NCBI GenBank assembly: GCA_964643135.1
Contig: CAZXPC010000001.1
Location: 103,726-167,725, forward strand
DNA from: an uncultured Candidatus Saccharibacteria bacterium
Lineage (GTDB): Bacteria; Patescibacteriota; Minisyncoccia; UBA6257; Colwellbacteraceae
DNA: 64,000 nucleotides
Direction of reading: 5' to 3'
The notes beneath the pieces were generated by a model that saw only the letters and a program-made list of their open reading frames with translations, searched no databases and was not told where the DNA came from. A program made the position numbers and the translations under genes. Numbering within the stretch: position 1 is the first letter of the stretch; each line of letters begins with the position of its first letter. Shown piece by piece: positions 2,750 through 59,398 of the stretch.

Positions 2750-3688
2750 ATGAAAGCAGATCTGGAGATGAAAAAAAAGGAGGGATCATTTCTCCAGTCG
2801 GACGACTGGGCTTTATTTCAAAAGCAGCTGGGCCGGCCTAATTTTCAGATCGAAAGATCTGACTTCAGGGCGCTCCTGATTGAATACCCGCTTAAGTTTT
2901 TCGGCAGCTACCTTTATGCGCCGCGCGTATATTTAAAAGATCTGGACGATTTGGAATTCCTGGTTAAGCAGGCGAAGGAGATCGCGCGCGGAAGAAAATC
3001 AATATTCCTCCGCCTCGAACCCCAGGAGACAATATCTCTGAGCCAATATGGTTTTAAAAAAATCAGCTCTTTGCAGCCCGACATGACGCTCGTCTCCGAT
3101 CTTTCGCAGACCCACGAAAGTATATTGAAAAATATGGATCACGATACCCGTTATGCCGTTAGGACCGCCGAAAAGAGGGGAGTGAAAACTGTCTCATCGC
3201 GAAAAATCGGGAAAGATGCCGCTTTTGCCATCTTTTGGGAAATGTTTTTAGAAACCAACAAACGTCAGAGTCTTGGCCACTACGGAGAAAAGTATTATAA
3301 AGAGCTCCTGGCTTTTGACAGCCGGTCGGGGAGCCGCATGGAGTCCGAAATACTTTTGGCCGAACTCGAAGGAGTCTATATTGCCGGCGCAATTATTCTT
3401 TACTATGAAGATACCGCGACTTACCTCTACGCCGCTTCGGTTTCGGGTTATGGCCGTTTTAACGCGCCTTCATACGTTATCTGGCGGGCCATGTCGGATG
3501 CTAAAGACAGGGGCATGAAATATTTCGATTTCTGGGGGATCAGCGATGAGAATAAAAAATGGGCAAAATTCAGCGCCTTCAAACGCAGTTTTGGCGGAGA
3601 GGAGGTCCATTATCCCGGAACTTTTGATTTGCCGTTAAATCGGTCTCTTTATTATCTCTACCAGACTGCTAAAAAGATAATCCGTTAG
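2750..3688 (+). CDS. FemAB-family peptidyltransferase-like protein (peptidoglycan interpeptide bridge formation, GNAT fold)
   Basis: 312 aa. Resembles FemAB/FemX architecture (YIAGAIILYYEDTATYLYAASVS; FSAFKRSFGG). Co-oriented with the Mur ligase gene, 2-nt gap. Confidence 0.5.
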   Translation: MKADLEMKKKEGSFLQSDDWALFQKQLGRPNFQIERSDFRALLIEYPLKFFGSYLYAPRVYLKDLDDLEFLVKQAKEIARGRKSIFLRLEPQETISLSQYGFKKISSLQPDMTLVSDLSQTHESILKNMDHDTRYAVRTAEKRGVKTVSSRKIGKDAAFAIFWEMFLETNKRQSLGHYGEKYYKELLAFDSRSGSRMESEILLAELEGVYIAGAIILYYEDTATYLYAASVSGYGRFNAPSYVIWRAMSDAKDRGMKYFDFWGISDENKKWAKFSAFKRSFGGEEVHYPGTFDLPLNRSLYYLYQTAKKIIR

Positions 3689-12315: not shown

Positions 12316-13017
12316 CTATTTTGCTAGGGCCTTCAATTTAGAAACCTCCTGATCCGTCAAAATCCGAAATTCTCCCTCTTTCAAGCCTCTAAGATTAATA
12401 TTGCCGACCCGGACGCGCTTTAAGTTTTCAATAGTGAGATTCAATGCCGCGCACATTCGGCGGATTTGGTGGCGCTTGCCCTCCTTTAGGATCAATTTAA
12501 ATGAGTGGTCGCTAAAGAGTTCTCCTTTGGCCGGCAGAGTTGTTTCGTTGTTATCAATCGTCATGCCGCGTTCCATTATATCGATAACTCTTTGTTTAAC
12601 GCTTTCTCGGGTTTTGACATCATATTCTTTCTCTACTTTATGGTCGTCACCCGTGATCGATGCGGTAATAACTCCGTCGTTTGAAAGCAGAATTAAGCCC
12701 TCGCTTTCCTTGTCGAGCCGCCCCACGCAATTTAAATTGGAAAATTGAGGCAGAAGATCGAAGACAGTTTGGCCTTCGTTCTTGGCTTTGGCCGAAACTA
12801 TCCCGCGCGGCTTGTAATAAGCGACCGTGATTTTTTTGTCGTCGCCTTTCAATGCGCCCGATTTAGATAACTCAATTTTGTCTTTAACCGGATCCACTTG
12901 TCGGCCCAGGTCTCTAACAACTTCGCCGTTAACCTTAACTAAACCGGCTAAGATAGCCTTCTCAGTTTCACGGCGGGAGAGGATCCCCTGTTCGGACATG
13001 TATTTCTGGATGCGCAT
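12316..13017 (-). CDS. rRNA pseudouridine synthase, RsuA/RluB family (S4 domain + PseudoU_synth_2)
   Basis: N-terminal S4 RNA-binding domain (MRIQKYMSEQGILSRRETEKAILAGLVKVNGEVV) followed by a catalytic domain with the conserved Asp region (VGRLDKESEGLILLSNDG). Confidence 0.85.
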   Translation of the reverse strand: MRIQKYMSEQGILSRRETEKAILAGLVKVNGEVVRDLGRQVDPVKDKIELSKSGALKGDDKKITVAYYKPRGIVSAKAKNEGQTVFDLLPQFSNLNCVGRLDKESEGLILLSNDGVITASITGDDHKVEKEYDVKTRESVKQRVIDIMERGMTIDNNETTLPAKGELFSDHSFKLILKEGKRHQIRRMCAALNLTIENLKRVRVGNINLRGLKEGEFRILTDQEVSKLKALAK

Positions 13018-13489: not shown

Positions 13490-13541
13490 CGTGATTATAG
13501 CATTAGGAAAGGCCTTGTCAAATTTATTTATCCGTGATCTT

Positions 13542-16484
13542 TCATTGAACCTTAACCGGGAACTTGGTCACGATTATTCTGCCGTTGTGCCGGAATTCGC
13601 CGAAGATATAATAATTGCCCGGGGTTGGAAATTTGAAATTGGCCGCTTCAATATCAGGTCCGAATTTATCAGGCAAATAAAGGTGCGACTGGTGAATAGT
13701 CTCCCCTAAAAGCTGCCCGATAAATGAAACCGGCAACAACCCGTGCGTATGCTTGAATGCTCCCAGGTCATCTCTGATTAGGCTAATGTGCATCGGCACA
13801 GCCAAGTATGGATTGAGGTCAGTCACGGGCTGGCCGTCTTTCTCAATATGATAATCGAGTACTGATGAGTAATTAGAATTTAGTTTCGAGGTATTGAGCG
13901 TAACATCATAGCCATCGAAATTTCCTTTAAGAACTTGCACGTCGCTAAAATTATCGGCCGGTTTGGGAATATCTGCCACGTGACCGATATTTTCGTAGAA
14001 TTGGAATGAGAAAATCTGCGCCCGGACAGTAAAATCAACCGAAACCATGTAATAGCCGGCAGCCGGGAAAGTGTAGCGGACCGGGAAAGTTGCCGTTTTT
14101 AACATTTCCGGTGTAACCGGACCGGCATCTTCGACATGGACATGCGAAAAGCTAGAAAAATCGCTGTTTACGATGACCGCGTGCAATATCCGATCGTGAT
14201 CGATCACCAAATCTTGCACCGGATTCCCCTGCTTGTCTTTAAACTTAAAAGTTAAAATCGCGGGAACGCCCGGCTGGATGGTTTTGGGGGAGACGTCTAG
14301 CGTCGCACTCGCCTCACTGGGACGGATAAAATATTTAAACTCTCTTTCATCAGCAAAGTGATATTGGCCGAGCCCCACCCCTAAGGTGCAGCCGGGCACT
14401 GAGATGTCAGACGTGGCCTTCCCGGCTCGTTCGGGCGCGCTCTCATGCCAAATATCCAAAATATTAAAGTTCTCGCACTCTCTCTCGAAGCCGCTGATCA
14501 AAACTGATCCATGAGCCGCATGTCCGCCGAACCAGGACGTCAGCGTTATTGCCGCGAAAATCAAGAGAATTACCCAAGAGTCGCGATTAACAAAAGTGAT
14601 TTCCGAACCCCCTTCCCGAGGACCGTCCTCGGCGGCTGACTCGAGCTGTCCTCGGTAACCGGCCTGTAATTTGCTGCTGCGTTTATAGAGATAGCCCGCT
14701 GCGGCAAAAATAAACATAGCGGTTATGACGTTAACCATCTCAAAAATCCCAAAACTGCGCTTTTCGGAATTGGCGTTGCTCGCCTTTATCTCGGTCGGAT
14801 AATTTAGCTTAAAAGATGTGACCGCGTTATAGGCTTTTTCCTGCTCAGCCGAAATATCTACTTTCCAGTTGCCCGCCGGAGACAAGAGACTCATGGGGAA
14901 AAGGTAGCCGCCGTAGAAAATCTGCTTGAGAGGCGCGGAAATCGGACCGATCCCCTGTTCGCTATTAGTCAACGTTACGCTCGGGTTAATCACCGATCGC
15001 GCGGCGCCGCTTTGCGTGTCGGCAAAAGTGAGCAAGAATTGACCGTCGTCATAAGGAGCCTCGGTTAATTCTATTTTTACATTCTGACTCACCGTCTCTC
15101 TAAGGAAGCTGTAGTTTCGTTCGATCGGCGGAGTCGTAATAATCATGAGCGAGGTTATACCAAGAACAATGATGCCGGCGGCTGCCTCGAGCATCAAAGT
15201 TGCGTGGAGCCAATTGAGTTTGCCTTTGGTTAACTTTGGTTCGATGTAAAACTCATGAAAAAGCCGCAAGCCGAGCAGGATAGCCGCAAAAATACTTAGC
15301 GCAATAAAGGTTTTGCCCCAGTCGGTTATAAGAACATTCGAAAAAGACTTAAGATGCAGCCAAACAACATAAACGCCCGTAACGCCGGCGATGGCGAATG
15401 AAACGTTGGCGACAGTCGAGAAAGAAGTTAGGCAAAAAGCCGCCATATTGATGCTTTTGATTCTCCGAACTATGGGAGAAAGTAGGAACAGCATCGCGAA
15501 TAGTCCGCCGATCCAGATATCTTTGAAAAAGAGATGGATAAAGTTTACGGCCACCGAAAAGTCGGGCGCAAAGTTAGATGCTGCCGCATGGCTGACCTTG
15601 GCGCGGGCGAGGTCAATCAGAGCTAAAACGATAAAAATGACCCATTCGGTTTCTATAATCTTATGACTCGCAAAAATAGATTTTTTTCTGAACTCAAAAA
15701 TGCCAACAACTAAAGCGGCGCCGACCATACGGTAAATCGTATAGAGCGCGGCGGTCGTGCTGAGGAAAGAAGAGAAAGCCTCTTGGAATGAAGTTTCCTG
15801 AAGATAGCTCAGATCATTGGCCTTATAGATCAAATACGATATGCCCCCCAAAAGAACTAAGACGAATCCGCCGATAACAGCCAGATTGAACCTTCGGCTG
15901 AAGATCGCGTCCTCTGCCGCGCCGATCCTGCCTGAATATTTCTTAGTCGGCCGCCAGATAAACGCGAGCACAATAAAGGAGCCAAGCAGGATCGCTTCGC
16001 CGATCATTTCGAGAGAAATCGCCGCCGCCTCAGGAATACTGGAACTGTGGACAATCTGGAATTCTTCGGAAGCGTTGCCCGCGCCGACCGGGCTCGCCGA
16101 TTTAACCGAAAAAATATAGGCGCCTTTGGTAAAGTGGCCGTCGTCGGCCGAAATAACATGCCACGAGACGGTATAACTCCCCTCCCCGCCGTCTTTAATG
16201 CCAATCGTTAGTCTGCGTTGATCGGCCGGGTCGGGCGAAGCCAGCCCCGGAGCGCCGTCTAAATTAACCTTCGAACCATCCGGACCAAAAACAGCTATGC
16301 CGGAGACTCTTGGCTCAACCCTCTCGCTGAAATCAATCGAGATTAAAGAAGGCGAAGCCTGCAAAAGGCTCGAAGCCGCCGGGCTGTATAAAACCGGGGT
16401 CGCATGCGCGCTTGCCCCGTGGATATTAGCCATCAAGGAAATTAAGAATGCCGCCCCGATTATTCTCTTCCAAATTTTTATCAT
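13542..16484 (-). CDS. Fused CopC-CopD copper-transport protein with two additional C-terminal extracytoplasmic His-rich domains (YcnJ-like, extended)
   Basis: Signal peptide then CopC domain (HATPVLYSPA ... YTVSWHVISADDGHFTKGAYIFSV), then about 8 TM helices (CopD-like). About 430 aa C-terminal region with two similar segments containing HVHVED and HTHG. ATGA overlap with the upstream gene; start set at MIKIWKR rather than the 1007-aa track ORF start. Confidence 0.7.
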   Translation of the reverse strand: MIKIWKRIIGAAFLISLMANIHGASAHATPVLYSPAASSLLQASPSLISIDFSERVEPRVSGIAVFGPDGSKVNLDGAPGLASPDPADQRRLTIGIKDGGEGSYTVSWHVISADDGHFTKGAYIFSVKSASPVGAGNASEEFQIVHSSSIPEAAAISLEMIGEAILLGSFIVLAFIWRPTKKYSGRIGAAEDAIFSRRFNLAVIGGFVLVLLGGISYLIYKANDLSYLQETSFQEAFSSFLSTTAALYTIYRMVGAALVVGIFEFRKKSIFASHKIIETEWVIFIVLALIDLARAKVSHAAASNFAPDFSVAVNFIHLFFKDIWIGGLFAMLFLLSPIVRRIKSINMAAFCLTSFSTVANVSFAIAGVTGVYVVWLHLKSFSNVLITDWGKTFIALSIFAAILLGLRLFHEFYIEPKLTKGKLNWLHATLMLEAAAGIIVLGITSLMIITTPPIERNYSFLRETVSQNVKIELTEAPYDDGQFLLTFADTQSGAARSVINPSVTLTNSEQGIGPISAPLKQIFYGGYLFPMSLLSPAGNWKVDISAEQEKAYNAVTSFKLNYPTEIKASNANSEKRSFGIFEMVNVITAMFIFAAAGYLYKRSSKLQAGYRGQLESAAEDGPREGGSEITFVNRDSWVILLIFAAITLTSWFGGHAAHGSVLISGFERECENFNILDIWHESAPERAGKATSDISVPGCTLGVGLGQYHFADEREFKYFIRPSEASATLDVSPKTIQPGVPAILTFKFKDKQGNPVQDLVIDHDRILHAVIVNSDFSSFSHVHVEDAGPVTPEMLKTATFPVRYTFPAAGYYMVSVDFTVRAQIFSFQFYENIGHVADIPKPADNFSDVQVLKGNFDGYDVTLNTSKLNSNYSSVLDYHIEKDGQPVTDLNPYLAVPMHISLIRDDLGAFKHTHGLLPVSFIGQLLGETIHQSHLYLPDKFGPDIEAANFKFPTPGNYYIFGEFRHNGRIIVTKFPVKVQ

Positions 16485-16999
16485 TGCTTCTTTTTCTGCC
16501 AGATCGATACCAGGATAGCAACTAAAACCATGATTATAGGAACCGCCAATTCGAGCGCCTGCCATGGATTTAAACCGGTACTCACCGGCGCCCCGATTTG
16601 GATCTGGAAAGAGGCGCTGGTGGCGCTTTTGTTGTCCTTAAAAATATTAACATCCATCGTATAAAGGCCGGCCTTCGGAAAAACAACCGTTAAGGCGGTG
16701 AACCCGTCCTGAGATTCGGGCAGATCCTTTTTTAGCAAATCGCCGCTGTCTGGATTCTTGATCTCAACCGCAACATGATCGAAAGAAAGATACTCGCGCG
16801 TACTGCTGGAGAGAAGATTGAAATCGAACTGGATTGGAGTGCCCGGCTCGGGCGCGGCGAATTGGTCGGTGCCGATATCGATAATGTACGGCCCTACGAC
16901 TTTTTCCAAACGCAAGCCCGCCAGACCGTTGGCCTCCGCCCCGTGGCCCGATAAGAATGTTAGCGTGAGAATAATTAAGCCAAGGGCAGCCTTCTTCAT
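16481..16999 (-). CDS. Secreted, C-terminally membrane-anchored beta-rich protein (possible YtkA/cupredoxin-like copper-handling accessory)
   Basis: Signal peptide, about 120 aa beta-rich domain, C-terminal TM helix (LAVPIIMVLVAILVSIW). Operonic between the YcnI-like and CopC-CopD genes. Function inferred from context only. Confidence 0.35.
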   Translation of the reverse strand: MKKAALGLIILTLTFLSGHGAEANGLAGLRLEKVVGPYIIDIGTDQFAAPEPGTPIQFDFNLLSSSTREYLSFDHVAVEIKNPDSGDLLKKDLPESQDGFTALTVVFPKAGLYTMDVNIFKDNKSATSASFQIQIGAPVSTGLNPWQALELAVPIIMVLVAILVSIWQKKKQ

Positions 17000-17002
17000 T
17001 GG

Positions 17003-17737
17003 TTAGGCCTTTTCTTGCGAATGAGGCTTCCTCGAAGTGAAAACCAATCCGATTGCAATAATTCCCAAAATTAACCCCCCGACGGCCAGATTTCTGGCGA
17101 AGTTGATATTGTTGGCCATCGCGATAACGTCATTCTGGGCGATCAGATTGTTTTGATTTAGATCGGCAGCGGTGTAAGCCGGCTCAGGAAAACCATAATC
17201 GCTTCGTCCGGCCGGGCATCCGAAAGCTCCGACTTTATGGACCCTCGTCACATTAGTCCCAACCGAAACTTGTGCCTTGTCTTCGGCCGTTTCCGAAAAA
17301 TCGCCTTGGACGCAGCTAAATTTTAAATCAACGGGCGCGCCCTCCAACTCTCCGAATATTCGATACGTATAGGTCGTCTCAACTGTCGGGATAAAGGCGG
17401 CGGTATAAGCCCCGGGGCCGGCTTCGTCTGACGGATCAAGGGAAAGCGTTCTGGCTTGGTCGCCGGCGCTCAATTCAACTTTTAGGGTGTCCTCGAGTCC
17501 GGTTACCGGCTCTCCGTTCGTAACGCCCGGACCGGCCACCCTGGTTACGGCGAGTTCCAGGCCAGATTTATCGTCAACCAAAACAGGCTCATTCAGCGAG
17601 CCGACTTTAAAATCATAATAGGTGTTGTTAACCTTAAAAGTATCGTGCTCGTGAGCGGACGCTGAGTTTATCAAGCCCAAAGTCATAAATAAGGACATAA
17701 GAGCGAAGGACGCGGCTAAAATAAGTTTAATTTTCAT
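17003..17737 (-). CDS. YcnI-like (DUF1775) copper-binding membrane-anchored protein
   Basis: Signal peptide ending SASA followed immediately by HEHD (mature N-terminal His as in YcnI). C-terminal TM anchor (GGLILGIIAIGLVF). First gene of the copper cluster. Confidence 0.55.
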   Translation of the reverse strand: MKIKLILAASFALMSLFMTLGLINSASAHEHDTFKVNNTYYDFKVGSLNEPVLVDDKSGLELAVTRVAGPGVTNGEPVTGLEDTLKVELSAGDQARTLSLDPSDEAGPGAYTAAFIPTVETTYTYRIFGELEGAPVDLKFSCVQGDFSETAEDKAQVSVGTNVTRVHKVGAFGCPAGRSDYGFPEPAYTAADLNQNNLIAQNDVIAMANNINFARNLAVGGLILGIIAIGLVFTSRKPHSQEKA

Positions 17738-17758
17738 AAGTAAAATTATATCGAATCT

Positions 17759-18169
17759 CTACTTATTTAGCCAATAAACAGCTTCTTCGCGGCTAGAGAA
17801 CCAACTGACTCGCCGGTTGAAGGTTTTAATCAGGAAAAAAGCGAATTCCAGGATCGCATTCTGAAAGTCGGTGTTGCCCACGATAGCAATCTTGTTGATT
17901 TGCTTGTTCGCAGCCAGATCGCGGTAAACCTCGCCGCCTCCCTTGGAGACATAGCCCAACTTCCCCATAGGAGTGATATCGACTATGCAATTATAAATTT
18001 TGTCGGGCTTTAAGCTTAATAATCTCAAGCACTCGTCGCGAAATAGTTCGGCTTGGCGAGTGTTGCTCTCATCGTCGTACTCAGGAATCAGAAAAGCCAT
18101 GTTTAACAAACCTTCGGCATCATCGGCGGAAATGGTAAAAGTTTTTTTAAGATCGACATCCGAAGTCAT
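17759..18169 (-). CDS. Hypothetical protein, possibly STAS/SpoIIAA-like fold
   Basis: 136 aa. C-terminal [21 protein letters not shown]...SREEAVYWL resembles the STAS-domain C-terminus. Weak. Confidence 0.3.
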
Positions 18170-18201: not shown

Positions 18202-18232
18202 AAATAAAATCAATCTGGTGTATAATTCAAAT

Positions 18233-18784
18233 ATGGCCAAAGAAATCGCAGTATTCGGGGGCGGATGCTTCTGGTGCACCGAAGCGGTTTTTAAGGATCT
18301 CCGAGGCGTCACTGGAACGATGCCGGGTTATGCCGGCGGATCCAAGCCCGACCCGACTTACGAGGCGGTCTGCGGCGGAAAAACCGGCCACGCCGAAGTT
18401 ACTAAAATAGAATTCGACCCGTCCTTAATTTCTTTTGAAGATCTACTCACGGTCTTTTTCGCCGTTCACGACCCGACCACTTTAAACCGCCAAGGCAATG
18501 ATGTCGGTACGCAGTACCGCTCAATCATTCTCTACACGAGCGACAGCCAGAAAAAACAAGCCGAAGAATTTATCAGGAAGCTTGATCAAGACGAACCGGC
18601 CGCGGAGAAAACCGCGCCACGAGTGGTGACCGAGTTGAAGTCTCTCGATAAATTTTATCCGGCCGAAGATTATCACCGCGATTATTTTGCTAAGAACCCC
18701 AACCAGCCCTATTGCCAGTTGGTGATCAGCCCCAAGCTTAAGAAGCTAAAGGAGAGGTTTGGCGCGCTTTTAGCCAAAGAATAA
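18233..18784 (+). CDS. msrA: Peptide methionine sulfoxide reductase MsrA
   Basis: GGGCFWC active-site motif. Start set at the ATG ([14 protein letters not shown]); TATAAT (18221-18226) lies 6 nt upstream, so probably leaderless. Confidence 0.9.
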
Positions 18785-19030: not shown

Positions 19031-20446
19031 ATGATTTTTTTGTCTTTCTTGTACAATAAACTGATCGAGCCGAGATCCCAAAATGAAGATTCGGCGCGGC
19101 GAGAATTTATTTTGAATATCTTTCTCATTGCCTCAACGGTTCTTCTGTCTTTCGCGGTTTTCCTGGCTCTAAAAAGTTCTATTGTGAATGGCAAAAATTA
19201 TCAGGGGGATTCTCCTGTTTATGTCTTCAGTATCTGGCTGTTTTTTGTGCTGCTGCTCCTACTTTCAAGACGAGGATTCTTTAGGATAGTTTCCTACATT
19301 TTTGTAGGTGTATATTTCCTGGCGGTTTCTTACGGACTTTACCGTCTGGGAGTAGACCAGCCGGAAACACTCTTGGGCCTTGCCCTCGTGATTGTCATAT
19401 CCGGCGTGTTGGTAGGATCCAAATTTGCATTTCTAACCACCATTCTGTCTTCAGCGGTCTTGATCACTCTCGGATATCTGCAGATTGACGGAGTCTACAC
19501 GGTCCATTCGTATTGGAAAGACCTGCCGGCCAAGAAAACGGACGCTATTATTTTTTCCATAACTTTGGCGATAATCGCCATAGCTTCCTGGCTTTCCAAC
19601 CGAGAAATTGAAAAATCTCTCCGCCGGGCCCGAAAATCAGAAACTGAGCTCAAGAAAGAGCGCGACTCACTCGAGATCACAGTTCAGAGAAGAACCAAGG
19701 AACTTAAAGAAGCTCAAGCGGAGAAAATGTCCCAGCTTTATCGCTTTGCCGAATTCGGCCGGCTCAGTTCAGGCATGTTCCACGACCTTATCAATCCCCT
19801 TAACGCTGTTTCTCTGAATATGGAGAAAATAAAAAGCAGAGAAGCGTCGAGCTACGTCGACAAGGCAATCAGCGCGGCGCAGAAATTAGAAGAGATGGTT
19901 GGGGCGGTGCGTAAACAGCTGAACCGGGAAGAGAATAGGAGCCTCTTCTCCCTGAATAAGGAGATCGAATACGTCATCGATGTCCTTTCACACAAAGCCA
20001 AGAAGGCTCATGTGATAATAAATTTCTCATCGGAACACGAGATCCAAATCTTCGGAGACGCCATAAAATTTAATCAGGTAGTTCTCAACTTGATCGCGAA
20101 CGCTATTGATTCTTATCCGCCCGCGACTGGCAAAGGCGGCGAAAGAACTGTTTCAGTTACGATGCGCCAAAACCAAAACAACATCACTTTAGAAGTAAAA
20201 GATCGCGGCGCAGGTATACCTGAAGCCAACCTGAATAAGATATTTGAACCTTTCTTCACAACCAAGCCAGAGGGGCAAGGCATAGGCCTGGGCCTTTCGA
20301 TGACCAAGCGAATCATTGAAAAAGATTTCGGCGGAGATATCAGCGTTCAAAGCAAGATCGGCAGCGGCGCAGTTTTCACTATAAAAATTCCCCTAAAAAA
20401 TGAGGCAGCAGCGAGTCCAAGCGAAGGTCAGCAGCGCGCTCAATAA
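19031..20446 (+). CDS. Membrane sensor histidine kinase (HisKA + HATPase_c)
   Basis: About 5 N-terminal TM helices, coiled-coil, H-box FHDLINPLNAV, N/G boxes (DRGAGIP; GQGIGLGLSM). Confidence 0.85.
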   Translation: MIFLSFLYNKLIEPRSQNEDSARREFILNIFLIASTVLLSFAVFLALKSSIVNGKNYQGDSPVYVFSIWLFFVLLLLLSRRGFFRIVSYIFVGVYFLAVSYGLYRLGVDQPETLLGLALVIVISGVLVGSKFAFLTTILSSAVLITLGYLQIDGVYTVHSYWKDLPAKKTDAIIFSITLAIIAIASWLSNREIEKSLRRARKSETELKKERDSLEITVQRRTKELKEAQAEKMSQLYRFAEFGRLSSGMFHDLINPLNAVSLNMEKIKSREASSYVDKAISAAQKLEEMVGAVRKQLNREENRSLFSLNKEIEYVIDVLSHKAKKAHVIINFSSEHEIQIFGDAIKFNQVVLNLIANAIDSYPPATGKGGERTVSVTMRQNQNNITLEVKDRGAGIPEANLNKIFEPFFTTKPEGQGIGLGLSMTKRIIEKDFGGDISVQSKIGSGAVFTIKIPLKNEAAASPSEGQQRAQ

Positions 20447-22367
20447 TGGATTGAGGTTTTTAGCCGGCGAACAGGAAAAAGACGGCAGCTTCATGTGCCT
20501 CGTGTCGACTAAATTAGATGACTATAGCCAGGCTAAGACAGTACCGGCGATCGTCCCCACTAATATTGTTCTGTCGTCGCTTATCCACATCGAGAGCAAT
20601 CTCAGCGCCACTATTAAAAAGAAGGCGGCTGGTTTTTTACTCGGCGAGCGAAACGAATATTGGTCGTTCAACTATTGGTTCAAAAAGTCTAATTGGTTTA
20701 AGAAAGAACCCTATCCCGATGATCTGGACGACACCTTTTGCGCTCTCTCCGCTCTCTATGAATATAAGCCGGGCTTATTTAACGGCGAAGTCATGGCCAA
20801 GATTGTGACTATGCTCACCTCAGCTGAGAAGCAGGAAGGCGGACCTTATGATATGTGGCTCGTTCCCGAGGAGGGCCGAAGCACGTGGAACGACACCGAC
20901 TTAGTCGTGAACAGCAATGTGGCCTTCTTCCTCGCGCTTCAAGATATTTCTTTGCCGAAGGTCAACGCATTTATCGAAAAATCGATCGACGAAGAGGACT
21001 ATGAGTTTCCCTATAACAAAATTTATCCGGCCGTCTATTTCATTTCGAGATTCTATAAAGGAAGAAAAACGGACCGTATGATAAAACTTCTCCTTTCTAA
21101 ACAAGAGCAAAACGGCAAGTGGGAGAATCCCCTTCGCACTTCTCTAGCGATCTCAGCGCTGATAAATTTATCCGGTCATAAATATCAAGCCGAGCTGGAG
21201 AAAGGCATCGAATATCTATTACGAAATCAAAACCGTGACGGCGGCTGGAAGCCCGCATCTTTCTATTTTCAAATGAGAACTTCAAAGAAAACTCTCTATG
21301 CCGGGTCAGCCTCCATCACCACCGCTTTATGTTTGGAAGCGATCAACAAGTGGCAGAATAAGTTCAAGGCGCCCAAAATAGCCGTCCCGAAAAAAGAGAG
21401 AGCCGTGAAGGCAGCCGAAATATATGAGGCAGCCTCTAAAGTAGTCAAAACTAGATTTTCAACTTGCGATTCTGATCTAAGGAGAGAAGCTTCAAAAGTA
21501 GTCGCGAAAACACTGAAAGGCGACCGGGACAAACAGATCGTGCTGCTCCCCTACTTTTTTGCAGCGGCTCTACGGGAGTCCAGCCAAAAAATCATCGCAA
21601 AAAGAGATTTTCTGACCAACCTCGGAGCGGCCAACACATTCGGATGGATAGCCTACACTATTTACGATGATTACTTCGATGGCGAGAGCGGCGCTAAATC
21701 GCTGGCACTTCTTTCGGTTGCTAACGTGGCCCTGCGGGAGTCATCTGAGATATTCGGCAATATTCTGCCGCCCAGGGACGGCCTAAAGAGTGCATTTGCC
21801 GAATTTTCCAAGAAAATATTCGACACTATAGACGGCGCCAATGCCTGGGAAATCAACCACTGCCGGGGCGAAAAGCTGCCTGATTACGGCAATTATGCGC
21901 AGCTGGCGGAGAAGTCACTGGGACATTCGCTGGGGCCTATGGCCATCCTCTTCGCGCTCGGCTACAGAGAAAACTCGGCCGAAGTTCAAACTATGATGGA
22001 CTTCTTCCGTCACTACCTAATTGCGCGCCAACTGAATGACGATGCTCATGATTGGGAAAACGACCTGAAACGGGGCCATATCAACGCAGCCGCGATCCAA
22101 ATACTTAAGAAAATCAAGATACTCCCAGGCCGGCCTTCAGATAAACAACTCGGAGAACTGCGTAAATTATTTTGGGCCGATGCGGTGGTTCAGGTATGCA
22201 ATGATATTCTAAAACACGCGCAAATGGCCAGGAATAGCGTTGGTAGGTCGGCCCTCATCAAAGATGTATCTCTTTTCGAAAATTTGCTCGCGCCAATCGA
22301 GGAGTCGGCTCTAAAAGCGCTTAAGGAACGCGAAGAAACAATCAAGTTCGTCAAATCCTATCGATAA
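20400..22367 (+). CDS. Terpene-cyclase-like two-domain protein: N-terminal alpha/alpha-toroid with QW repeats and DxDDT motif, C-terminal helical domain with DDxxD motif
   Basis: QW-type repeats LRFLAGEQEKDGSF, EKQEGGPYDMW, LLLSKQEQNGKWEN, KGIEYLLRNQNRDGGWK. DDLDDTF (DxDDT). C-terminal AYTIYDDYFDGE plus acidic NDDAHDWEND about 120 aa later. 47-nt overlap with the kinase gene; start uncertain. Confidence 0.4.
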   Translation: MRQQRVQAKVSSALNNGLRFLAGEQEKDGSFMCLVSTKLDDYSQAKTVPAIVPTNIVLSSLIHIESNLSATIKKKAAGFLLGERNEYWSFNYWFKKSNWFKKEPYPDDLDDTFCALSALYEYKPGLFNGEVMAKIVTMLTSAEKQEGGPYDMWLVPEEGRSTWNDTDLVVNSNVAFFLALQDISLPKVNAFIEKSIDEEDYEFPYNKIYPAVYFISRFYKGRKTDRMIKLLLSKQEQNGKWENPLRTSLAISALINLSGHKYQAELEKGIEYLLRNQNRDGGWKPASFYFQMRTSKKTLYAGSASITTALCLEAINKWQNKFKAPKIAVPKKERAVKAAEIYEAASKVVKTRFSTCDSDLRREASKVVAKTLKGDRDKQIVLLPYFFAAALRESSQKIIAKRDFLTNLGAANTFGWIAYTIYDDYFDGESGAKSLALLSVANVALRESSEIFGNILPPRDGLKSAFAEFSKKIFDTIDGANAWEINHCRGEKLPDYGNYAQLAEKSLGHSLGPMAILFALGYRENSAEVQTMMDFFRHYLIARQLNDDAHDWENDLKRGHINAAAIQILKKIKILPGRPSDKQLGELRKLFWADAVVQVCNDILKHAQMARNSVGRSALIKDVSLFENLLAPIEESALKALKEREETIKFVKSYR

Positions 22368-31658: not shown

Positions 31659-32534
31659 CTATTTTATACTACCGTCTATCTTCAGAGCCGCGCTGCCGGT
31701 AAGAGGTACGCCGTCGGATGAAACAGCGGCATCCGCGCCAACCTGTTCTTCGGCGGCTGCGGGGGCCAGTTCGGCTCCCCTTAGGACTTCGAGCTGGTTG
31801 ATGAGAGTGCCCGAAACAATAACTTCAGTTGCCGGAGCCTGTTCTGCCCCAATCACAGCCTTAGCTGAAATCGCATCATCACTATTAATAGTAGTTGTCA
31901 CCGGAAGAGTATCAGATGTCGTAGGAGCCGGTGAAGCGGCGCGGGCCGTCAAGATCCCCTTAAGAACTTTGGCGTGAGCTTTGATAGCGGCCTCAAAATT
32001 TGAACTGACCGCTACAGCCGCAGCAGCATGATTGCTCGCTTTGATCGCTTCGACAGTTTTTACCGCCTCGCTGGACTGAACTTCAAAATTCGCTTTTACT
32101 TCGGCTTCGGTTCTGGCATCCAGCCGGCCGGCGGCGGCCAATTGCTCCGCTTCTTCCAGCCTCCTCGTCGCAAATTCTGTCTGAGCCTTTGCCTTAGCTT
32201 CAGTGCTAAGAGACAATGCCACCCGGGCTCCCTCAGTCACGTTCTTAATTGGATATAAAATATCTCCCGGCAACGAACTTTCGGCGGCAAAAGCAGCAGC
32301 TCCCCCTCCTCCCAACAACAGCATCACGGCTAAAAATATTGGCATAAATTTTAGTTTAATTAATAATTGTTTCTTGCCTGTCTGCCGGGCCAAATCAGCA
32401 TTTCTTACAGGTCCGTTTTTAATAAAATACACAATATTCTCTCGGATCAAAGATTTTTTTGATTCTGAAAGCCGGACGCTTTGGGCTTCCCGAATCATCT
32501 CTTCAAAGATCTTATGATTGTTGTTATTTGTCAT
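31659..32534 (-). CDS. Putative anti-sigma factor (single-pass membrane protein, DUF5667-like)
   Basis: Short cytoplasmic N-terminus, one TM (FMPIFLAVMLLLGGGGAAAFAA), Ala-rich extracytoplasmic region. Overlaps the ECF sigma gene by 11 nt. Confidence 0.5.
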   Translation of the reverse strand: MTNNNNHKIFEEMIREAQSVRLSESKKSLIRENIVYFIKNGPVRNADLARQTGKKQLLIKLKFMPIFLAVMLLLGGGGAAAFAAESSLPGDILYPIKNVTEGARVALSLSTEAKAKAQTEFATRRLEEAEQLAAAGRLDARTEAEVKANFEVQSSEAVKTVEAIKASNHAAAAVAVSSNFEAAIKAHAKVLKGILTARAASPAPTTSDTLPVTTTINSDDAISAKAVIGAEQAPATEVIVSGTLINQLEVLRGAELAPAAAEEQVGADAAVSSDGVPLTGSAALKIDGSIK

Positions 32535-33051
32535 TGGCTTTTGTATTTAATAGCTCTCTCATTTGCTTCAAGGCCCGGTTCAACCTAACCGAAACATTGT
32601 TCTCGCTCTCTCCGATCATTTGGCTTATCTCCTGGGGCGAGAATTCATTAATGTATCTCATGACGATCACTTCCCGATATTTATGATCCAGACCGTCTAG
32701 CAGTTTCAGCATATCTTTAGCTTCGATGCCGGTTTCGATAACCGACGCGCTATCCCGGCCTCCCTCCGAAGAACTTAAGTCAAAGCCCTGATCTCTCAAT
32801 TCATCCAGCGATAGAGCCTTCTTGCGCCGATATTCATCAATAATCATATCGTTGGCAATCTTGTAGAGAAGCGCTCTCAGATTTTTCACTTCGTTGCCCT
32901 TCTCGAGATATTCCCAGGCCTTGATAAATATATTTTGGACCATATCTTCAGCCGTAGACCGATCTGAGATACGGAAATAACAATGCCTGAAAAGAGCATC
33001 CGAAAAATCCTCGTAGGTTGTCAAAAAATCCTGTTCGTTAATGGTTTTCAT
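32524..33051 (-). CDS. ECF-subfamily RNA polymerase sigma-70 factor
   Basis: Region 2 (DMVQNIFIKAWEYL) and region 4 HTH (VIVMRYINEFSPQEISQMIGESENNVSVRLNRALKQMRE). Confidence 0.85.
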   Translation of the reverse strand: MKTINEQDFLTTYEDFSDALFRHCYFRISDRSTAEDMVQNIFIKAWEYLEKGNEVKNLRALLYKIANDMIIDEYRRKKALSLDELRDQGFDLSSSEGGRDSASVIETGIEAKDMLKLLDGLDHKYREVIVMRYINEFSPQEISQMIGESENNVSVRLNRALKQMRELLNTKANDK

Positions 33052-54604: not shown

Positions 54605-55147
54605 TTATTGAGTCTCCCTGATTACTTGGCCGGCCTTCATCAATTCTTTCTCCTGAAGCAGCTTCGGCAGATCAAGAATTATCAGTAGTCTTTCCGCGCC
54701 GGGCTTTCCCAAAACCGCCTCGCCTTTCAGATAGTCGGCGTGAATCTTTGACGCGATCACCCCCGGCGTCGGCCTCACAGTCGAAATCGGCAGCATAATT
54801 ACCTCCTTCACCCGGTCGACCATAACCCCAAAAGTGTTGCCATTCGATTCGGTAATCACGATATGTTCGGGTTTAACAGAATGAGCGGGCAAATGGAATC
54901 TTTTTTCAAGATCGATCACGACCACGATCTTCCCCCGCAGATTCAAAATTCCGGCGATAAATTCCGGCGCGTTGGGGATCGGCGTAATGTCAGGCAATTT
55001 GATGATCTCCTGAAGCTCGTTGATATCAACCGCATATTCTTCGTGGTCGATTTCGAGAACCAGATACTGTTTCAGAACCTCGGGCGGAGCCTGGTCTATT
55101 TTAGTTTTGATCCGACGGACCGCTTCTTGGATATCTTTTTCCTCCAT
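54605..55147 (-). CDS. cheW: Chemotaxis coupling protein CheW
   Basis: YLVLEIDHEEYAVDINELQEII...GILNLRGKIVVVIDL CheW-domain signature. Confidence 0.8.
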   Translation of the reverse strand: MEEKDIQEAVRRIKTKIDQAPPEVLKQYLVLEIDHEEYAVDINELQEIIKLPDITPIPNAPEFIAGILNLRGKIVVVIDLEKRFHLPAHSVKPEHIVITESNGNTFGVMVDRVKEVIMLPISTVRPTPGVIASKIHADYLKGEAVLGKPGAERLLIILDLPKLLQEKELMKAGQVIRETQ

Positions 55148-55150
55148 GCC

Positions 55151-56647
55151 CTAGGTTTTATTTTCGCCTTTATTTTCTTTGTCTTCAGGCTTCTTCAGAT
55201 TCAGCGTCGATTTAGCAGCCGCTGTTTTTTGCGAGAGAGGCTTAACCAGCCTAGGCCGTTCAAAGCGAAATGTCTCCGCGCTGGAAACGCCGGCAATGCT
55301 TTGCAAAGCAGTATATAGCGTCTGGAGCTGCTGGCTCGTTGCGGCGATTTGCTGGGCGTTGCTCGAGAGCTGCTGGACCGAAGCGGATAATTGATCGGCT
55401 CCGGCGGCGTTTTGGGTGGCGACTGAGGCGATTGAATCAATGAGCCGGCTAACGTTTTGAATACTGCCGGATTGCTGGTTAATGCCGGCCGAAATTTCTT
55501 CGATCTTGGTTGAAACCTGTTCGGTTGATCTAACCGTCCTGATAATTTTCCCGTTAACGTCTTTAACCAGCGTTTTAATTTCTTCAGCTGATTTGGCTGA
55601 ATTCTCGGCCAGTTTCCTAACCTCTTCGGCAACGACCGCGAAACCGCGGCCGGCCTCGCCGGCGCGAGCCGCCTCAATCGCCGCATTTAGCGCCAATAAA
55701 TTAGTTTGCTCGGCGATATTGGTTATAGTTTGAACAATGAGACCGATTTTTTCAGAGCTCCCGCCGGTATCCTGGGCCGCGTCAGATGCCTGGCTTGCTG
55801 CGATTGCCACCTGGCGGGCAGAGCTGGTCATCTGCTGGATCGCTGTTGAAACTTCGGCAATAAGCTTAGCCATGTTCTCAGCGCTTTGCGATTGATCGGT
55901 CGCGCCGGAGGCCACCTTTTGAGCAATCACGACGTTTTGCTGTGAAGCGGCAGAAATTTGTTCAGCCGAAGATGAAAATTGGTTGAGAGACCCGCCAATT
56001 AACCGCGTCGAAGCCCGCAAGCCCGGAATCGTGGTCATATATGTTGATCCAAAAACTGCGAGAAGAATCAGAGCTAGTAAGATAGCCGCTATAGTCAGGC
56101 CGTTAAAAATACTTGACTGCAGCGCTCCTGCCGCGCTGATGTTTTGGTCGATCGCCTTTTGCTCGGCATCTACAATAGCCCTTAGGTGGGTTCTAATCTG
56201 GGCATCGATTTGAATAAGATCTGCGAGATCCTTCGACCCGACAACCTGGGCGCCGGCTTGAATAGAACCGACTACCTTATCTCCCAAAGCTAGCTCTTGA
56301 GGCATCAGGCCTTCGAAAGCATCCAAATCAATCAGCACTTGATTGATCCTAGTATATTGCCGAAGATTGGCCCGGCTCTTATCAACCAGTTTTATATTTT
56401 CGGCCAGATCGTTTAGGTAATTCTGGCTGCGCGTAAAAATGTAGTTATTGCGGTCGTTCATGACTCTAAGCTCTCCAACATCTAAGAGCGAGGCCGCTTC
56501 GGCAGCCTGCGTAACTCGGATCTCATCGGCGGTTTTCTGAGATACCCCGAGACTGTAGAATAAATAGTATCCCATCGCCCCCAAAATCAGGAAAATAGAA
56601 ACCGAACCTAAGATTATTTTATTACCCAAAGATAATTTTCTGGCCAT
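55151..56647 (-). CDS. Methyl-accepting chemotaxis protein
   Basis: N-terminal TM, second TM + HAMP, highly conserved signalling domain (EQTNLLALNAAIEAARAGEAGRGFAVVAEEVRKLAE). Confidence 0.85.
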   Translation of the reverse strand: MARKLSLGNKIILGSVSIFLILGAMGYYLFYSLGVSQKTADEIRVTQAAEAASLLDVGELRVMNDRNNYIFTRSQNYLNDLAENIKLVDKSRANLRQYTRINQVLIDLDAFEGLMPQELALGDKVVGSIQAGAQVVGSKDLADLIQIDAQIRTHLRAIVDAEQKAIDQNISAAGALQSSIFNGLTIAAILLALILLAVFGSTYMTTIPGLRASTRLIGGSLNQFSSSAEQISAASQQNVVIAQKVASGATDQSQSAENMAKLIAEVSTAIQQMTSSARQVAIAASQASDAAQDTGGSSEKIGLIVQTITNIAEQTNLLALNAAIEAARAGEAGRGFAVVAEEVRKLAENSAKSAEEIKTLVKDVNGKIIRTVRSTEQVSTKIEEISAGINQQSGSIQNVSRLIDSIASVATQNAAGADQLSASVQQLSSNAQQIAATSQQLQTLYTALQSIAGVSSAETFRFERPRLVKPLSQKTAAAKSTLNLKKPEDKENKGENKT

Positions 56648-56676
56648 ATTGAATAAAGTATAACATAATTATTCAT

Positions 56677-57759
56677 ATGGCTATGATAAAGAAGATTAGG
56701 GTGCTCGTTGCCGATGACTCATTTTTTATGCGCAAAGTTTTGCGCGAACTTTTGGGATATGAATTCGATATTGAAGTTGTAGGCGAAGCCAAGGACGGCG
56801 CCGAGGCGGTTAAGGAAGCGATCCGGCTAAAACCGAACGTGATTACCATGGATTATAATATGCCGATCGCCGACGGCGCGGTGGCAACCGAAGAAATCAT
56901 GCGGGCCGTTGATCCCCCGCCCGCGGTAATCATGCTTTCGGCTTATGCCCAGAAAGACGCCGAAGCAACCTTAAAGGTTCTCCGAGCCGGCGCGGTTGAT
57001 TTTATCCTCAAGCCTTCCGGCGAAGTTTCGGTCGACCTTGAAAAAATAAAAGACGAGCTGATCGCTAAAATTCGCGCCGCGGCCGAAGCCACGGTGAAAA
57101 AATACCCCGAACTCCAGAGCAGACTCCAAGTTAAAAAAGAGATCCCCGCGGAGATAGCTACTAAAATAGTTGTCATCGGAGCCTCAACCGGCGGCCCGCC
57201 CCTGTTGGAAAATTTAATTGCGGAACTGCCGACCGACCTCAAAGCGGCGGTGGTGGTGGTCCAGCATATGCCCGCGGGCTTTACGCGTATTTTCGCCGAC
57301 CGGCTAAATCGCAACTCGAAAATCCTGGTTAAAGAAGCCGAGGAGGGAGACTTGCTTAGGAATGGCATGGTTTTTGTCGCGCCGGGAGACCTGAACATGA
57401 CTCTTAGCAAGGCCTATGAAGATCCGAATAAAAAGATAGTCCATCTTTCGACCGAACCGGCTGATGTTACTTTGCGGCCCTCGATCGACATCTTTATGAT
57501 GTCGGCCGCGCACCAATATCCGCGCAATATGGTGAGCGTGCTTTTGACCGGCATGGGCGACGACGGAGTCGAAGGTTTGCGCGGAACTAAAACGATTCAC
57601 GGTTCAACCATTGCCCAGGACCCGTCAACCGCCGCAATTCCCTCTATGCCCCGGGCGGCCATTAAAGAAAAATTGGCTGACGAAATTTTAAAACCCGACC
57701 AGATAGTCAATCGACTAGTTCAGCTTGTCAACGCACAATCCAATGCCAATGGACATTAA
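56677..57759 (+). CDS. cheB: Chemotaxis response regulator protein-glutamate methylesterase CheB
   Basis: REC domain + linker + methylesterase domain (VVIGASTGGP; GMGDDG; catalytic Ser/His/Asp). Confidence 0.85.
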   Translation: MAMIKKIRVLVADDSFFMRKVLRELLGYEFDIEVVGEAKDGAEAVKEAIRLKPNVITMDYNMPIADGAVATEEIMRAVDPPPAVIMLSAYAQKDAEATLKVLRAGAVDFILKPSGEVSVDLEKIKDELIAKIRAAAEATVKKYPELQSRLQVKKEIPAEIATKIVVIGASTGGPPLLENLIAELPTDLKAAVVVVQHMPAGFTRIFADRLNRNSKILVKEAEEGDLLRNGMVFVAPGDLNMTLSKAYEDPNKKIVHLSTEPADVTLRPSIDIFMMSAAHQYPRNMVSVLLTGMGDDGVEGLRGTKTIHGSTIAQDPSTAAIPSMPRAAIKEKLADEILKPDQIVNRLVQLVNAQSNANGH

Positions 57760-59398
57760 CGAATTCAAAGAATTCATGGATGTTTCAGAATTCAAAAGTT
57801 ATTTCGTAGCCGAAGCCGGTGAACACCTTCAAAAGATGAATGACAATTTGCTGGCGCTAGAGAAAGACCCTGCCAATAAAAGCCTCTTAAAAGAGCTCAT
57901 GCGATCGTCGCATACGATTAAGGGATCGGCCGCAACTATGGCCTATAATAAGGTCGCTTACCTCGCCCACATTCTGGAAGACGTTTTCGACAGCGCCTCG
58001 AACGATGATATTCAAATTACTCCGGCACTGATTGCCGAACTTCTGAAAGGAGCCGATGCTATTGAAAACTCGGTCAGATCGATCGACCAAACCGGCCGGG
58101 AAATTGACCTAACCGACATCTCAGAGAAAATAAAAAAGTTAACCGGCGTATCAACGGAGGGCGTCGGCAAATCTCTTCGCCAGACTAAAGAAGTCCCGGT
58201 AGCCGCTTCGGCCGCGAAAATTCCGACAGTCGAAACTATTTCTCACGTTAAAGTTCCGGTAAGCCGGCTTGATTCTCTACTCTCGCTCGCCGAAGAAATT
58301 ATGCTTATCCGCATGCAGCTGGATCAGCTTAAGAATAATTACCTCCCGCTTAAAAATGTTGCCGAACGATTCGGACGACTGGTCTCCGAGCTCCAATACC
58401 AGGTCATGAAAGCTCGCCTCATCGCGCTCGACCAAGTTTTTGCGCGCTTTCCAAGGATGGTTCACGACCTGGCCTCTTCGACGGGGAAAACAGTGAATTT
58501 TGAAATCAGCGGCGGCGAAATTGAACTGGACCGGACCATCGTTGATGAACTAGGCGAACCGCTCATTCATCTTTTGAGAAACGCGGTCGACCACGGCATA
58601 GACAAAACCGGCACCGTAACCTTGAGCGCTGTCCGCGTGAAAGATCGGGCCCTGATTAGCGTCGAAAACAGCGGGAATGTCATTGATTTTAATAAGGTTA
58701 GGGAAAAGGCCGTCGAGAAAGGCATTGTGAGCGCCGAGACGGCGGCCAAGATGACTCAAGATCAGCTAACCGCCCTGCTTTTTGCGAACCGCTTATCGAC
58801 AAGCCGGGAGATAACTGAAATTTCCGGCCGCGGCGTGGGCCTGGGAATTGTCAAAAATTTTGCCGATGAAATCGGCGGCCGCGTTATTGTGACGTCACCC
58901 GTTAAGAACGGCCAAAATCCGACTGGAGCCCGCTTTACCCTCGAACTGCCGCTTACAATCGCGATTATCAAGGCTCTGCTCGTTAAAGTGGCCGGCCGCA
59001 TCTTCGCTCTTCCCTTTGCCGATATCGCGCGCTCGGTTTCAATCAATCCCTCGGATATCAAGACGCTGGGAGGTGAAGAAGTCGCTATTATTGATCAAGA
59101 GGATGTTCCTCTTTTAAGGCTGGATAAGATTTTTAACCTGGGAGGCTCGCCGAATCCAGCGCCTTCGGCCCCGGCTTCGGTTACGGCGGTTATGGTCGAA
59201 CGGGGCGATGATGTCGCCGCGCTCACGGTTGACGGGTTGGTTAATAAAGAAGAGCTTATTGTTAAGCCCCTGGCGCCGATTCTGCGCCAAAGTAAAGGAT
59301 TCTCGGGCTCGGCCATTCTGGGTAATGGCGAAACGATCTTGATTATCGACGTCGCCAATATCTTGGAAATTTCCAAAAAATCTAAAATTAAATTATGA
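57725..59398 (+). CDS. cheA: Chemotaxis histidine kinase CheA (short form)
   Basis: P1/Hpt (HTIKGSAATMAYNKVA), dimerisation and HATPase_c domains (GRGVGLGIV), C-terminal CheW-like P5 domain. Start ambiguous (57725/57743/57749). Confidence 0.85.
   Translation: MSTHNPMPMDINEFKEFMDVSEFKSYFVAEAGEHLQKMNDNLLALEKDPANKSLLKELMRSSHTIKGSAATMAYNKVAYLAHILEDVFDSASNDDIQITPALIAELLKGADAIENSVRSIDQTGREIDLTDISEKIKKLTGVSTEGVGKSLRQTKEVPVAASAAKIPTVETISHVKVPVSRLDSLLSLAEEIMLIRMQLDQLKNNYLPLKNVAERFGRLVSELQYQVMKARLIALDQVFARFPRMVHDLASSTGKTVNFEISGGEIELDRTIVDELGEPLIHLLRNAVDHGIDKTGTVTLSAVRVKDRALISVENSGNVIDFNKVREKAVEKGIVSAETAAKMTQDQLTALLFANRLSTSREITEISGRGVGLGIVKNFADEIGGRVIVTSPVKNGQNPTGARFTLELPLTIAIIKALLVKVAGRIFALPFADIARSVSINPSDIKTLGGEEVAIIDQEDVPLLRLDKIFNLGGSPNPAPSAPASVTAVMVERGDDVAALTVDGLVNKEELIVKPLAPILRQSKGFSGSAILGNGETILIIDVANILEISKKSKIKL

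Follow-up and report, generated by a model that had tools for sequence, protein, structure and literature searches.

We describe here a cluster of three genes on the minus strand of a 64,000-nucleotide stretch of DNA from an uncultured Candidatus Saccharibacteria bacterium (assembly GCA_964643135.1, contig CAZXPC010000001.1, positions 103,726 to 167,725), hereafter called the window, in whose coordinates all positions are given. The cluster probably forms an extracytoplasmic copper capture and import unit resembling the YcnJ/YcnI system, made in part of domains that have not been described. It combines known CopC-CopD parts with three unannotated domain families, and the cluster itself has never been studied. 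According to the open reading frame (ORF) list, the three genes are direct neighbours in the same direction: P1 (17003-17737, 244 amino acids), P2 (16481-16999, 172 amino acids) and P3 (13542-16484, 980 amino acids counted from the MIKIW start). A preliminary description of this DNA had called the trio co-directional and overlapping; the common direction stood, but the overlap is confined to P2 and P3, which share 4 nt (ATGA) where the start codon of P3 lies over the stop codon of P2, while P1 and P2 are separated by a gap of 3 nt. The longest ORF of P3 extends to 16565, where an earlier ATG would give 1007 amino acids but would also overlap P2. All of the motifs on which the preliminary description relied, SASA/HEHD, YTVSWHVISADDGHFTKGAYIFSV, HVHVED (781-786) and HTHG (912-915), were found in the translations (residue numbers are those of the 980-residue P3; the submitted translation had 981 residues, an offset of 1). 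Two independent public assemblies carried P1 and P2 genes identical to those of the window, and one of them had a complete 980-residue P3 call, the other ending inside P3 (688 residues). An assembly or frameshift fusion artefact was rejected as the origin of the 980-residue ORF, on account of the gene calls in other assemblies and because 70 or more protein clusters and about 45 genomes, each from a different species, share the architecture; nor is this architecture a peculiarity of the present genome.

The reading of P3 as a CopC-CopD fusion was borne out by curated models for both parts. Its CopC domain (residues 27-128; 16101-16406, minus strand) was well above the Pfam threshold (PF04234, E 1.7e-17, 64.7 bits against a cut-off of 23.3, residues 27-127), and CopC chains in the PDB, including the YcnJ CopC domain 9C14, matched with E values down to 4.9e-9. 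The domain follows a signal peptide predicted by hydropathy (residues 1-26; 16407-16484) with cleavage after GASA, and the signal peptidase site A26/H27 was conserved among the 69-86 relatives compared (A26 97%, H27 100%); cleavage would therefore make His27 the N-terminus of the CopC domain. This first mature residue and D115-G-H117 constitute the Cu(II)-site motif, and H27, D114, D115 and H117 were conserved in 100% of those relatives, with 69-72 sequences counted for H27, D115 and H117. A Met-rich Cu(I) site defines the C1-x subtypes of CopC. Since there is no Met within residues 27-128, the domain belongs by its sequence, like that of YcnJ, to the Cu(II)-only, C0-1-like type, and its candidate His/Asp/His brace is intact.

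The CopD core (residues ~150-455; 15120-16037) also passed its Pfam threshold (PF05425, 33.9 bits against a cut-off of 32.1). Hydropathy placed eight hydrophobic segments between residues 158 and 449, and two histidines of the core were highly conserved in the same relatives (H299 99%, H317 94%). The NCBIfam copper_CopD model aligned to residues ~191-452, yet its score of 56 bits fell below the cut-off of 195, which means that P3 does not count as a CopD equivalog; the NCBIfam CopC model likewise aligned below its equivalog cut-off. Two further transmembrane (TM) segments were found by hydropathy at 578-596 and 636-656. With eight plus two TM segments and CopC outside, every soluble domain of P3 is therefore predicted to be extracytoplasmic, the regions after TM8 and after TM10 lying outside and the basic loop at 600-635 in the cytoplasm, which agrees with the extracytoplasmic location proposed earlier for the C-terminal extension.

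That extension, of about 430 residues, had been described as forming two similar modules. Two such modules are indeed present, but they do not make up the whole of it, as a beta domain, a TM hairpin and a two-Cys subdomain come before them. The middle beta domain (residues 456-576; 14757-15119) is predicted to lie outside the membrane and has no conserved His, Cys or Met that could serve as metal ligand. This domain, which directly follows the last CopD helix, matched FixH weakly (E 0.016) and did not match YtkA, the YtkA-like matches sitting in the distal modules; as a third copy of the His modules it was rejected (hhalign at most 6.5%, no conserved ligands). The TM hairpin (residues 577-656; 14517-14756), which consists of TM9, the basic cytoplasmic loop and TM10 and is present in relatives, brings the chain back outside according to hydropathy. 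In the subdomain that follows (residues 657-722; 14319-14516), C670 and C699 were invariant and W679 (99%), H709 (85%) and H680 (74%) were conserved to varying degrees, and we regard it as a putative disulfide-type subdomain.

Modules A (residues 723-835; 13980-14318) and B (residues 845-980; 13545-13952) are predicted beta-sandwiches. They are homologous to each other (hhalign 99.4%, E 1.9e-21), and the alignment pairs H768, H781 and H783 of module A with H899, H912 and H914 of module B. The module histidines proved to be retained among homologues when conservation was assessed in about 195 members of the family, which were mostly cluster representatives at 50% identity. For module A the values were 93% for H763 (otherwise Met), 100% for H768, 94% for D775, 99% for H781 and 100% for H783; for module B they were 87% for M898, 99% for H899, 87% for D906, 98% for H912 and 97% for H914. 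Each module thus has a near-invariant His triad composed of an H-x-H and a His on the adjacent strand, to which module A adds a fourth His (sometimes Met). The full candidate ligand pattern, HHHH in module A with MHHH in module B, was found in 138 of 210 aligned sequences, both fused and standalone, and most of the others were fragments.

An AlphaFold model of residues 656-980, built with 34 homologues, had a pLDDT of 83 and a pTM of 0.81. The modules appeared in it as confident beta-sandwiches, each with a hairpin that has the lone His on one strand and the H-x-H on the following strand, and the Cys subdomain was poorly modelled (pLDDT 49-69). The preliminary description had suggested tandem YtkA- or cupredoxin-like metal sites, of which the conserved His and a weak YtkA likeness were recovered. 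The Pfam YtkA model (PF13115) matched 20 of 34 module-family members at E < 0.1 (best E 1.8e-6), and two matching members that were inspected singly exceeded the 25.9-bit cut-off (28.9 and 27.1 bits); the window's own modules remained below it at 21.7 bits, with the weak match at the start of module B. Since most of the matches fall short of the cut-off, and most extend over just half of the model (profile positions 2-40 of 85), we consider the modules to be distant YtkA-like domains rather than clear members of that family.

P1 is composed of a signal peptide with predicted cleavage after SASA, a beta-sandwich of about 150 residues and a C-terminal TM anchor (217-235). In an alignment of 33 members, an A-x-A site was followed by an invariant mature start, H29-E30-(H/R)-D32, in which His29 (codon at 17651-17653, minus strand; invariant in 33/33) is the predicted first mature residue, as had been anticipated from the SASA/HEHD sequence, and a candidate Cu(II) ligand. 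C142 and C174 were also invariant in these 33 sequences, which contained no invariant or near-invariant Trp and thus no equivalent of YcnI W137. The earlier assignment of P1 to DUF1775/YcnI had to be abandoned: none of the 33 members matched the Pfam family at E up to 1, the family profile had no YcnI match in the PDB, hhalign against the sequence of 7ME6 (verified as identical to it) gave 0.17%, and YcnI was absent from the top 50 Foldseek matches of the P1 model, a ten-strand beta-sandwich with a pLDDT of 80.5. The top Foldseek matches were weak (FetP/P19/FtrA at E 6e-3, TM 0.27/0.41, rmsd 8 A), with CrdA and DUF4426 also among the leading ones; all of these are copper proteins. P19/FetP/FtrA are copper-binding partners of Ftr1-type permeases; P1 had no Pfam match to P19/FetP/FtrA, and no Ftr1-type permease gene is adjacent to it. 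Two other identities for P1, a CopC that has diverged and a further copy of the P3 modules, were rejected as well (hhalign 0.1-4.5%), and hhalign gave no profile kinship of P1 to CopC, the modules, P2 or the middle domain. None of the homologues of P1, more than 273 in number, carried a Pfam domain. P1 represents a separate undescribed family and is at most a functional analogue of YcnI.

P2 has a predicted signal peptide, a single beta-sandwich module and a C-terminal TM anchor, in agreement with its earlier description as a secreted, membrane-anchored, beta-rich protein. The module is homologous to module A (hhalign 96%) and module B (91%), and the P2 family has no conserved His, Cys or Met. 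This comparison makes P2 a paralogue of the P3 modules that lacks their His and is predicted to be free of metal ligands.

These sequence analyses establish the domain composition, topology and conservation of the cluster, to which several known systems come close. YcnJ of Bacillus subtilis, a putative copper importer, has an N-terminal CopC brace and a CopD core followed by YtkA-like beta structure, as P3 does, and in both cases a membrane-anchored protein with N-terminal His is encoded alongside. P3 differs from it in length (980 against ~540 amino acids) and in what comes after CopD: where YcnJ has one YtkA domain, P3 has a beta domain free of ligands, then an additional TM hairpin and a two-Cys subdomain, and finally two His-triad modules; moreover, the cluster lacks an adjacent YcnK-type regulator and its partner protein P1 does not belong to DUF1775. 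The likeness of P1 to YcnI/DUF1775, a mono-histidine-brace Cu(II) protein (7ME6, 7MEK), lies in the exposed invariant N-terminal His, the beta-sandwich ectodomain, the C-terminal TM anchor and the position of the gene beside a CopC-CopD gene, whereas P1 lacks the Trp corresponding to W137 and has two invariant Cys and the H-E-(H/R)-D N-terminus. CtaK (YtkA, PF13115), which is implicated in delivering copper, and the modules are all small extracytoplasmic, membrane-tethered beta-sandwiches with conserved His/Met, although the P3 modules occur in tandem and their H...HxH triad is undescribed for CtaK. Zcp (DUF4198, 9MHL) also has a beta-sandwich with an H-x-H and a distant His forming a triad for one metal ion, and its role is that of a buffer or chaperone in the periplasm, not of a transporter; it was the sole metal-binding protein recognised among the top 50 Foldseek matches of the modules, at a weak fold level only (E 1.6e-4, TM 0.2-0.3), and unlike P3 it is a zinc-regulated homodimer without transporter fusion. 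Corynebacterium CtiP provides a precedent for CopD fused to a domain for cuproenzyme assembly (Caa3_CtaG) (PMC9145763), but there the fused domain is membrane CtaG and not a set of extracytoplasmic beta-sandwich modules.

As regards metal binding, the identity of the metal, the direction of transport and the client enzyme, we infer the following scheme. P1 and the CopC domain would pick up Cu(II) outside the cell and deliver it to CopD for import, with P1 in the role of YcnI, exchanging Cu(II) with CopC. Each module would bind one copper ion, and the two could work as tethered capture or chaperone sites that feed CopC and CopD; alternatively, they might pass copper to extracytoplasmic cuproenzymes, as the YtkA domain of YcnJ and CtaK do. 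P2 may be a scaffold or spacer, and the net direction would be import and supply, not detoxification. In the Bacillus system, YcnJ (CopC-CopD-YtkA) is required under copper limitation and its function needs the copper-site residues of the CopC as well as the CopD domain, while its YtkA domain contributes to Cta function and is partly redundant with CtaK for the CuA-containing oxidase (PMC13344008). Exchange of Cu(II) occurs between YcnI and YcnJ-CopC (PMC12362106); CtaK/YtkA, with its conserved His and Met, supports CuA assembly, and its His118Tyr mutant is inactive (PMC9145763); and the metal of Zcp is held on a beta-sandwich by a triad made of an H-x-H and a further His (PMC12663993).

The extension was surveyed among CopC-CopD homologues. 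A word-indexed search returned 49 relatives only, whereas an exhaustive profile search returned 5375 cluster representatives at E <= 1e-3, of which 680 were at <= 1e-30. The apparent rarity was thus an artefact of the search, and the extension was rejected as a rare novelty. Among the best 150 of the profile matches, about 70 had the full architecture (CopC-CopD-beta domain-Cys subdomain-module A-module B, 900-1000 amino acids) and about 60 were standalone module pairs. Scanning one genome per species yielded 66 loci, many of them from Acidobacteriota/Terriglobia, with one bin each labelled Verrucomicrobiia and Ignavibacteriota, Patescibacteria of the groups Saccharibacteria, Peribacteria, Peregrinibacteria, Doudnabacteria, Nomurabacteria and Paceibacterota, and also Nitrospirota. 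P1 was directly upstream of P3 in about 42 of the 45 full-architecture loci, that is, wherever the contig allows, and in about 30 loci P2 was located between the two. P2 was missing from the more distant Patescibacteria versions. In five of these distant versions, a secreted protein of about 110 amino acids with a His-rich stretch (e.g. SHSHGAHSHEG) was encoded directly upstream of P1 (at ~3000-3400 in each locus), and it may be another accessory metal-binding protein. The P3 homologue was split into two or three ORFs in several Acidobacteriota bins (four loci), probably through assembly frameshift errors rather than gene fission.

Outside the full architecture, the module pair has independent links to copper. 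In Nitrospirota-type proteins the pair was fused directly to CopD and a separate CopC gene lay upstream; a thioredoxin-like gene stood beside one such locus, and Redoxin and NosL genes were near another. One standalone module pair of actinobacterial type was encoded between copZ and copA, downstream of csoR (CsoR-CopZ-X-CopA). Gammaproteobacterial standalone homologues had a conserved DUF1302-DUF1329-X-DUF5667 order (four loci). Among all 66 loci, no neighbour recurred beyond P1 and P2 that would name a client enzyme. ORFs for Fur-family-like regulators (five loci) and for Znu-like ABC ATPases with a His-rich tail (five loci) were also seen near the cluster, several of them in Peribacteria and Saccharibacteria, judged by sequence alone.

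Several points weigh against this interpretation. The roles of the P1, P2 and module families are predicted, and the literature likewise gives no more than an inferred direction for transport by CopD proteins. How the His clusters are arranged in space was deduced from secondary structure only. Foldseek comparison of the modules with the PDB gave generic tandem Ig, FnIII and MG matches with TM of about 0.2, and the window's own modules, as stated above, score below the YtkA cut-off. No copper-responsive regulator of the CsoR, CopY, CueR or YcnK type adjoins the cluster, and no gene for a cuproenzyme, the need for which had been supposed from the copper-import machinery, was found among the ~45 ORFs scanned (the window has 60 that reach 150 amino acids or more); copper ATPases and copper regulators were likewise missing from these ~45, and an 852-residue P-type ATPase in the window belongs to the cation N/C-terminal and not to the HMA type. 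The gammaproteobacterial DUF1302-DUF1329 cluster has no evident copper link. In addition, the Fur-like and Znu-like neighbours hint at a metal-homeostasis island with regulation that is not obviously copper-specific.

It is conceivable, although we consider it unlikely, that the cluster serves copper tolerance, with the modules, CopC and P1 sequestering excess copper at the cell surface and CopD acting in sensing or redistribution instead of nutritional uptake. The first description of CopC and CopD came from a resistance operon, and CopD-containing proteins have been reported to confer copper resistance in several species (PMC8424229); the actinobacterial standalone pair lies inside a CsoR-CopZ-CopA efflux operon, and several binding sites on one polypeptide would suit buffering. 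However, no CopA ATPase, multicopper oxidase or CusCBA-type genes were found beside the window cluster or as conserved neighbours in the 66 loci, and in Bacillus the CopC-CopD fusion YcnJ is needed when copper is limiting (PMC13344008).

We give a low probability to the view that the modules bind another metal (Zn, Ni or Fe) or are promiscuous buffers like DUF4198/Zcp, with copper specificity residing only in CopC. Zcp, a protein that takes Cu, Co and Ni as well as Zn (PMC12663993), has as its Zn site an H-x-H plus His triad like that of the modules, it is among their weak structural matches, and the Fur-like and Znu-like neighbours would fit a broader metal role. Against this, covalent fusion joins the modules to CopC-CopD in 70 or more protein clusters and, in Nitrospirota, to CopD alone, Met is the only substitute for H763, as is typical of copper ligands, the CsoR-CopZ-CopA and NosL contexts point to copper, and the modules resemble YtkA/CtaK.

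A further idea, which we hold to be quite improbable, is that the module pair forms a two-copper redox centre, with a His4 site and a His3(+Met) site on facing beta-sandwiches, that possibly works as a cupric reductase feeding CopD or as another oxidoreductase, and that the P1 family is a new N-terminal-His copper class unrelated to CopC, YcnI and LPMOs. Such a non-coupled pair might have a ligand logic reminiscent of CuH/CuM of peptidylglycine monooxygenase. If this were true, a tethered redox centre would turn CopC- or P1-bound Cu(II) into Cu(I) for passage through CopD.

Least credible is that the modules are structural Ig-like spacers or adhesion domains whose His serve folding or protein contacts, since in spite of the generic tandem beta-sandwich with Ig, FnIII and MG proteins as best PDB matches, the intimin Big domain as the only PDB match of the module family profile, and P2 as an example of the same module without any His, seven His keep their positions with 93-100% conservation in both fused and standalone proteins whose sequences are overall only 30-40% identical, which is not seen in ordinary spacer domains.

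Bacterial copper acquisition is poorly understood, and in the copper capture and import reading, a CopC-CopD core is joined in many uncultured soil and groundwater lineages with two undescribed and strongly conserved candidate copper-binding families, P1 with its N-terminal His and the tandem His-triad module. Both families are testable candidates for new extracytoplasmic copper chaperones, and their annotation could reach thousands of proteins that are now without domain assignment. The presence of the cluster in small-genome Patescibacteria suggests that copper supply matters even there. A reduced-genome host had been assumed from the start, and the glutamyl-tRNA synthetase (GltX) encoded in the window is consistent with it: the protein was closest to metagenome proteins (up to 69% identity), and its best named matches, at 53-61%, were from Colwellbacteria, Wolfebacteria, Paceibacterota and other Patescibacteria. 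The host thus looks like a Patescibacterium of Paceibacteria type, and a reduced genome is plausible. The copper cluster itself, however, showed about 60% identity to versions from large-genome Acidobacteriota and just 31-37% to the versions that many other Patescibacteria carry. A neighbour-joining tree of the module pair (without support values) placed the window beside a Saccharibacteria bin and a compact Acidobacteriota clade, both of which fell within a broader Patescibacteria grouping, separate from a second clade of Patescibacteria. This nesting of the Acidobacteriota clade among Patescibacteria versions, together with the identities, suggests lateral transfer of the cluster between the two phyla, in either direction.

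Around the cluster, a promoter-like site (TTGGCT-18 nt-TATAAT, 17745-17774, minus strand) was located directly upstream of P1 by consensus scan only, and the regional count of such sites was not above chance. An ORF of 136 amino acids on the same strand (17759-18169), 21 nt upstream of P1, had weak SpoIIAA/STAS-like matches only (E ~2e-3) and was not kept beside the cluster in other loci. The divergent gene adjoining the cluster at 18218-18784 encodes methionine sulfoxide reductase A (MsrA), and MsrA genes were present within 6 kb of the cluster in four more loci of different lineages; this proximity could be due to chance or to a link with oxidative stress. On the other side, just downstream of the P3 stop codon, the minus strand has a perfect sigma-70 consensus at 13494-13521 (TTGACA-16 nt-TATAAT with an upstream TG), which would drive a pseudouridine synthase gene at 12316-13017. 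Elsewhere in the window, a 655-residue ORF at 20400-22367 had no Pfam match at E <= 1e-5 and overlapped the end of the preceding histidine-kinase gene, and a DUF5667 protein was encoded beside an ECF-type sigma factor at 31659-33051, unlinked to the copper cluster. Finally, genes for CheW, a methyl-accepting protein, a CheB-type methylesterase and a CheA-type kinase at 54605-59398 constitute a chemotaxis set in what is apparently a Patescibacteria genome.

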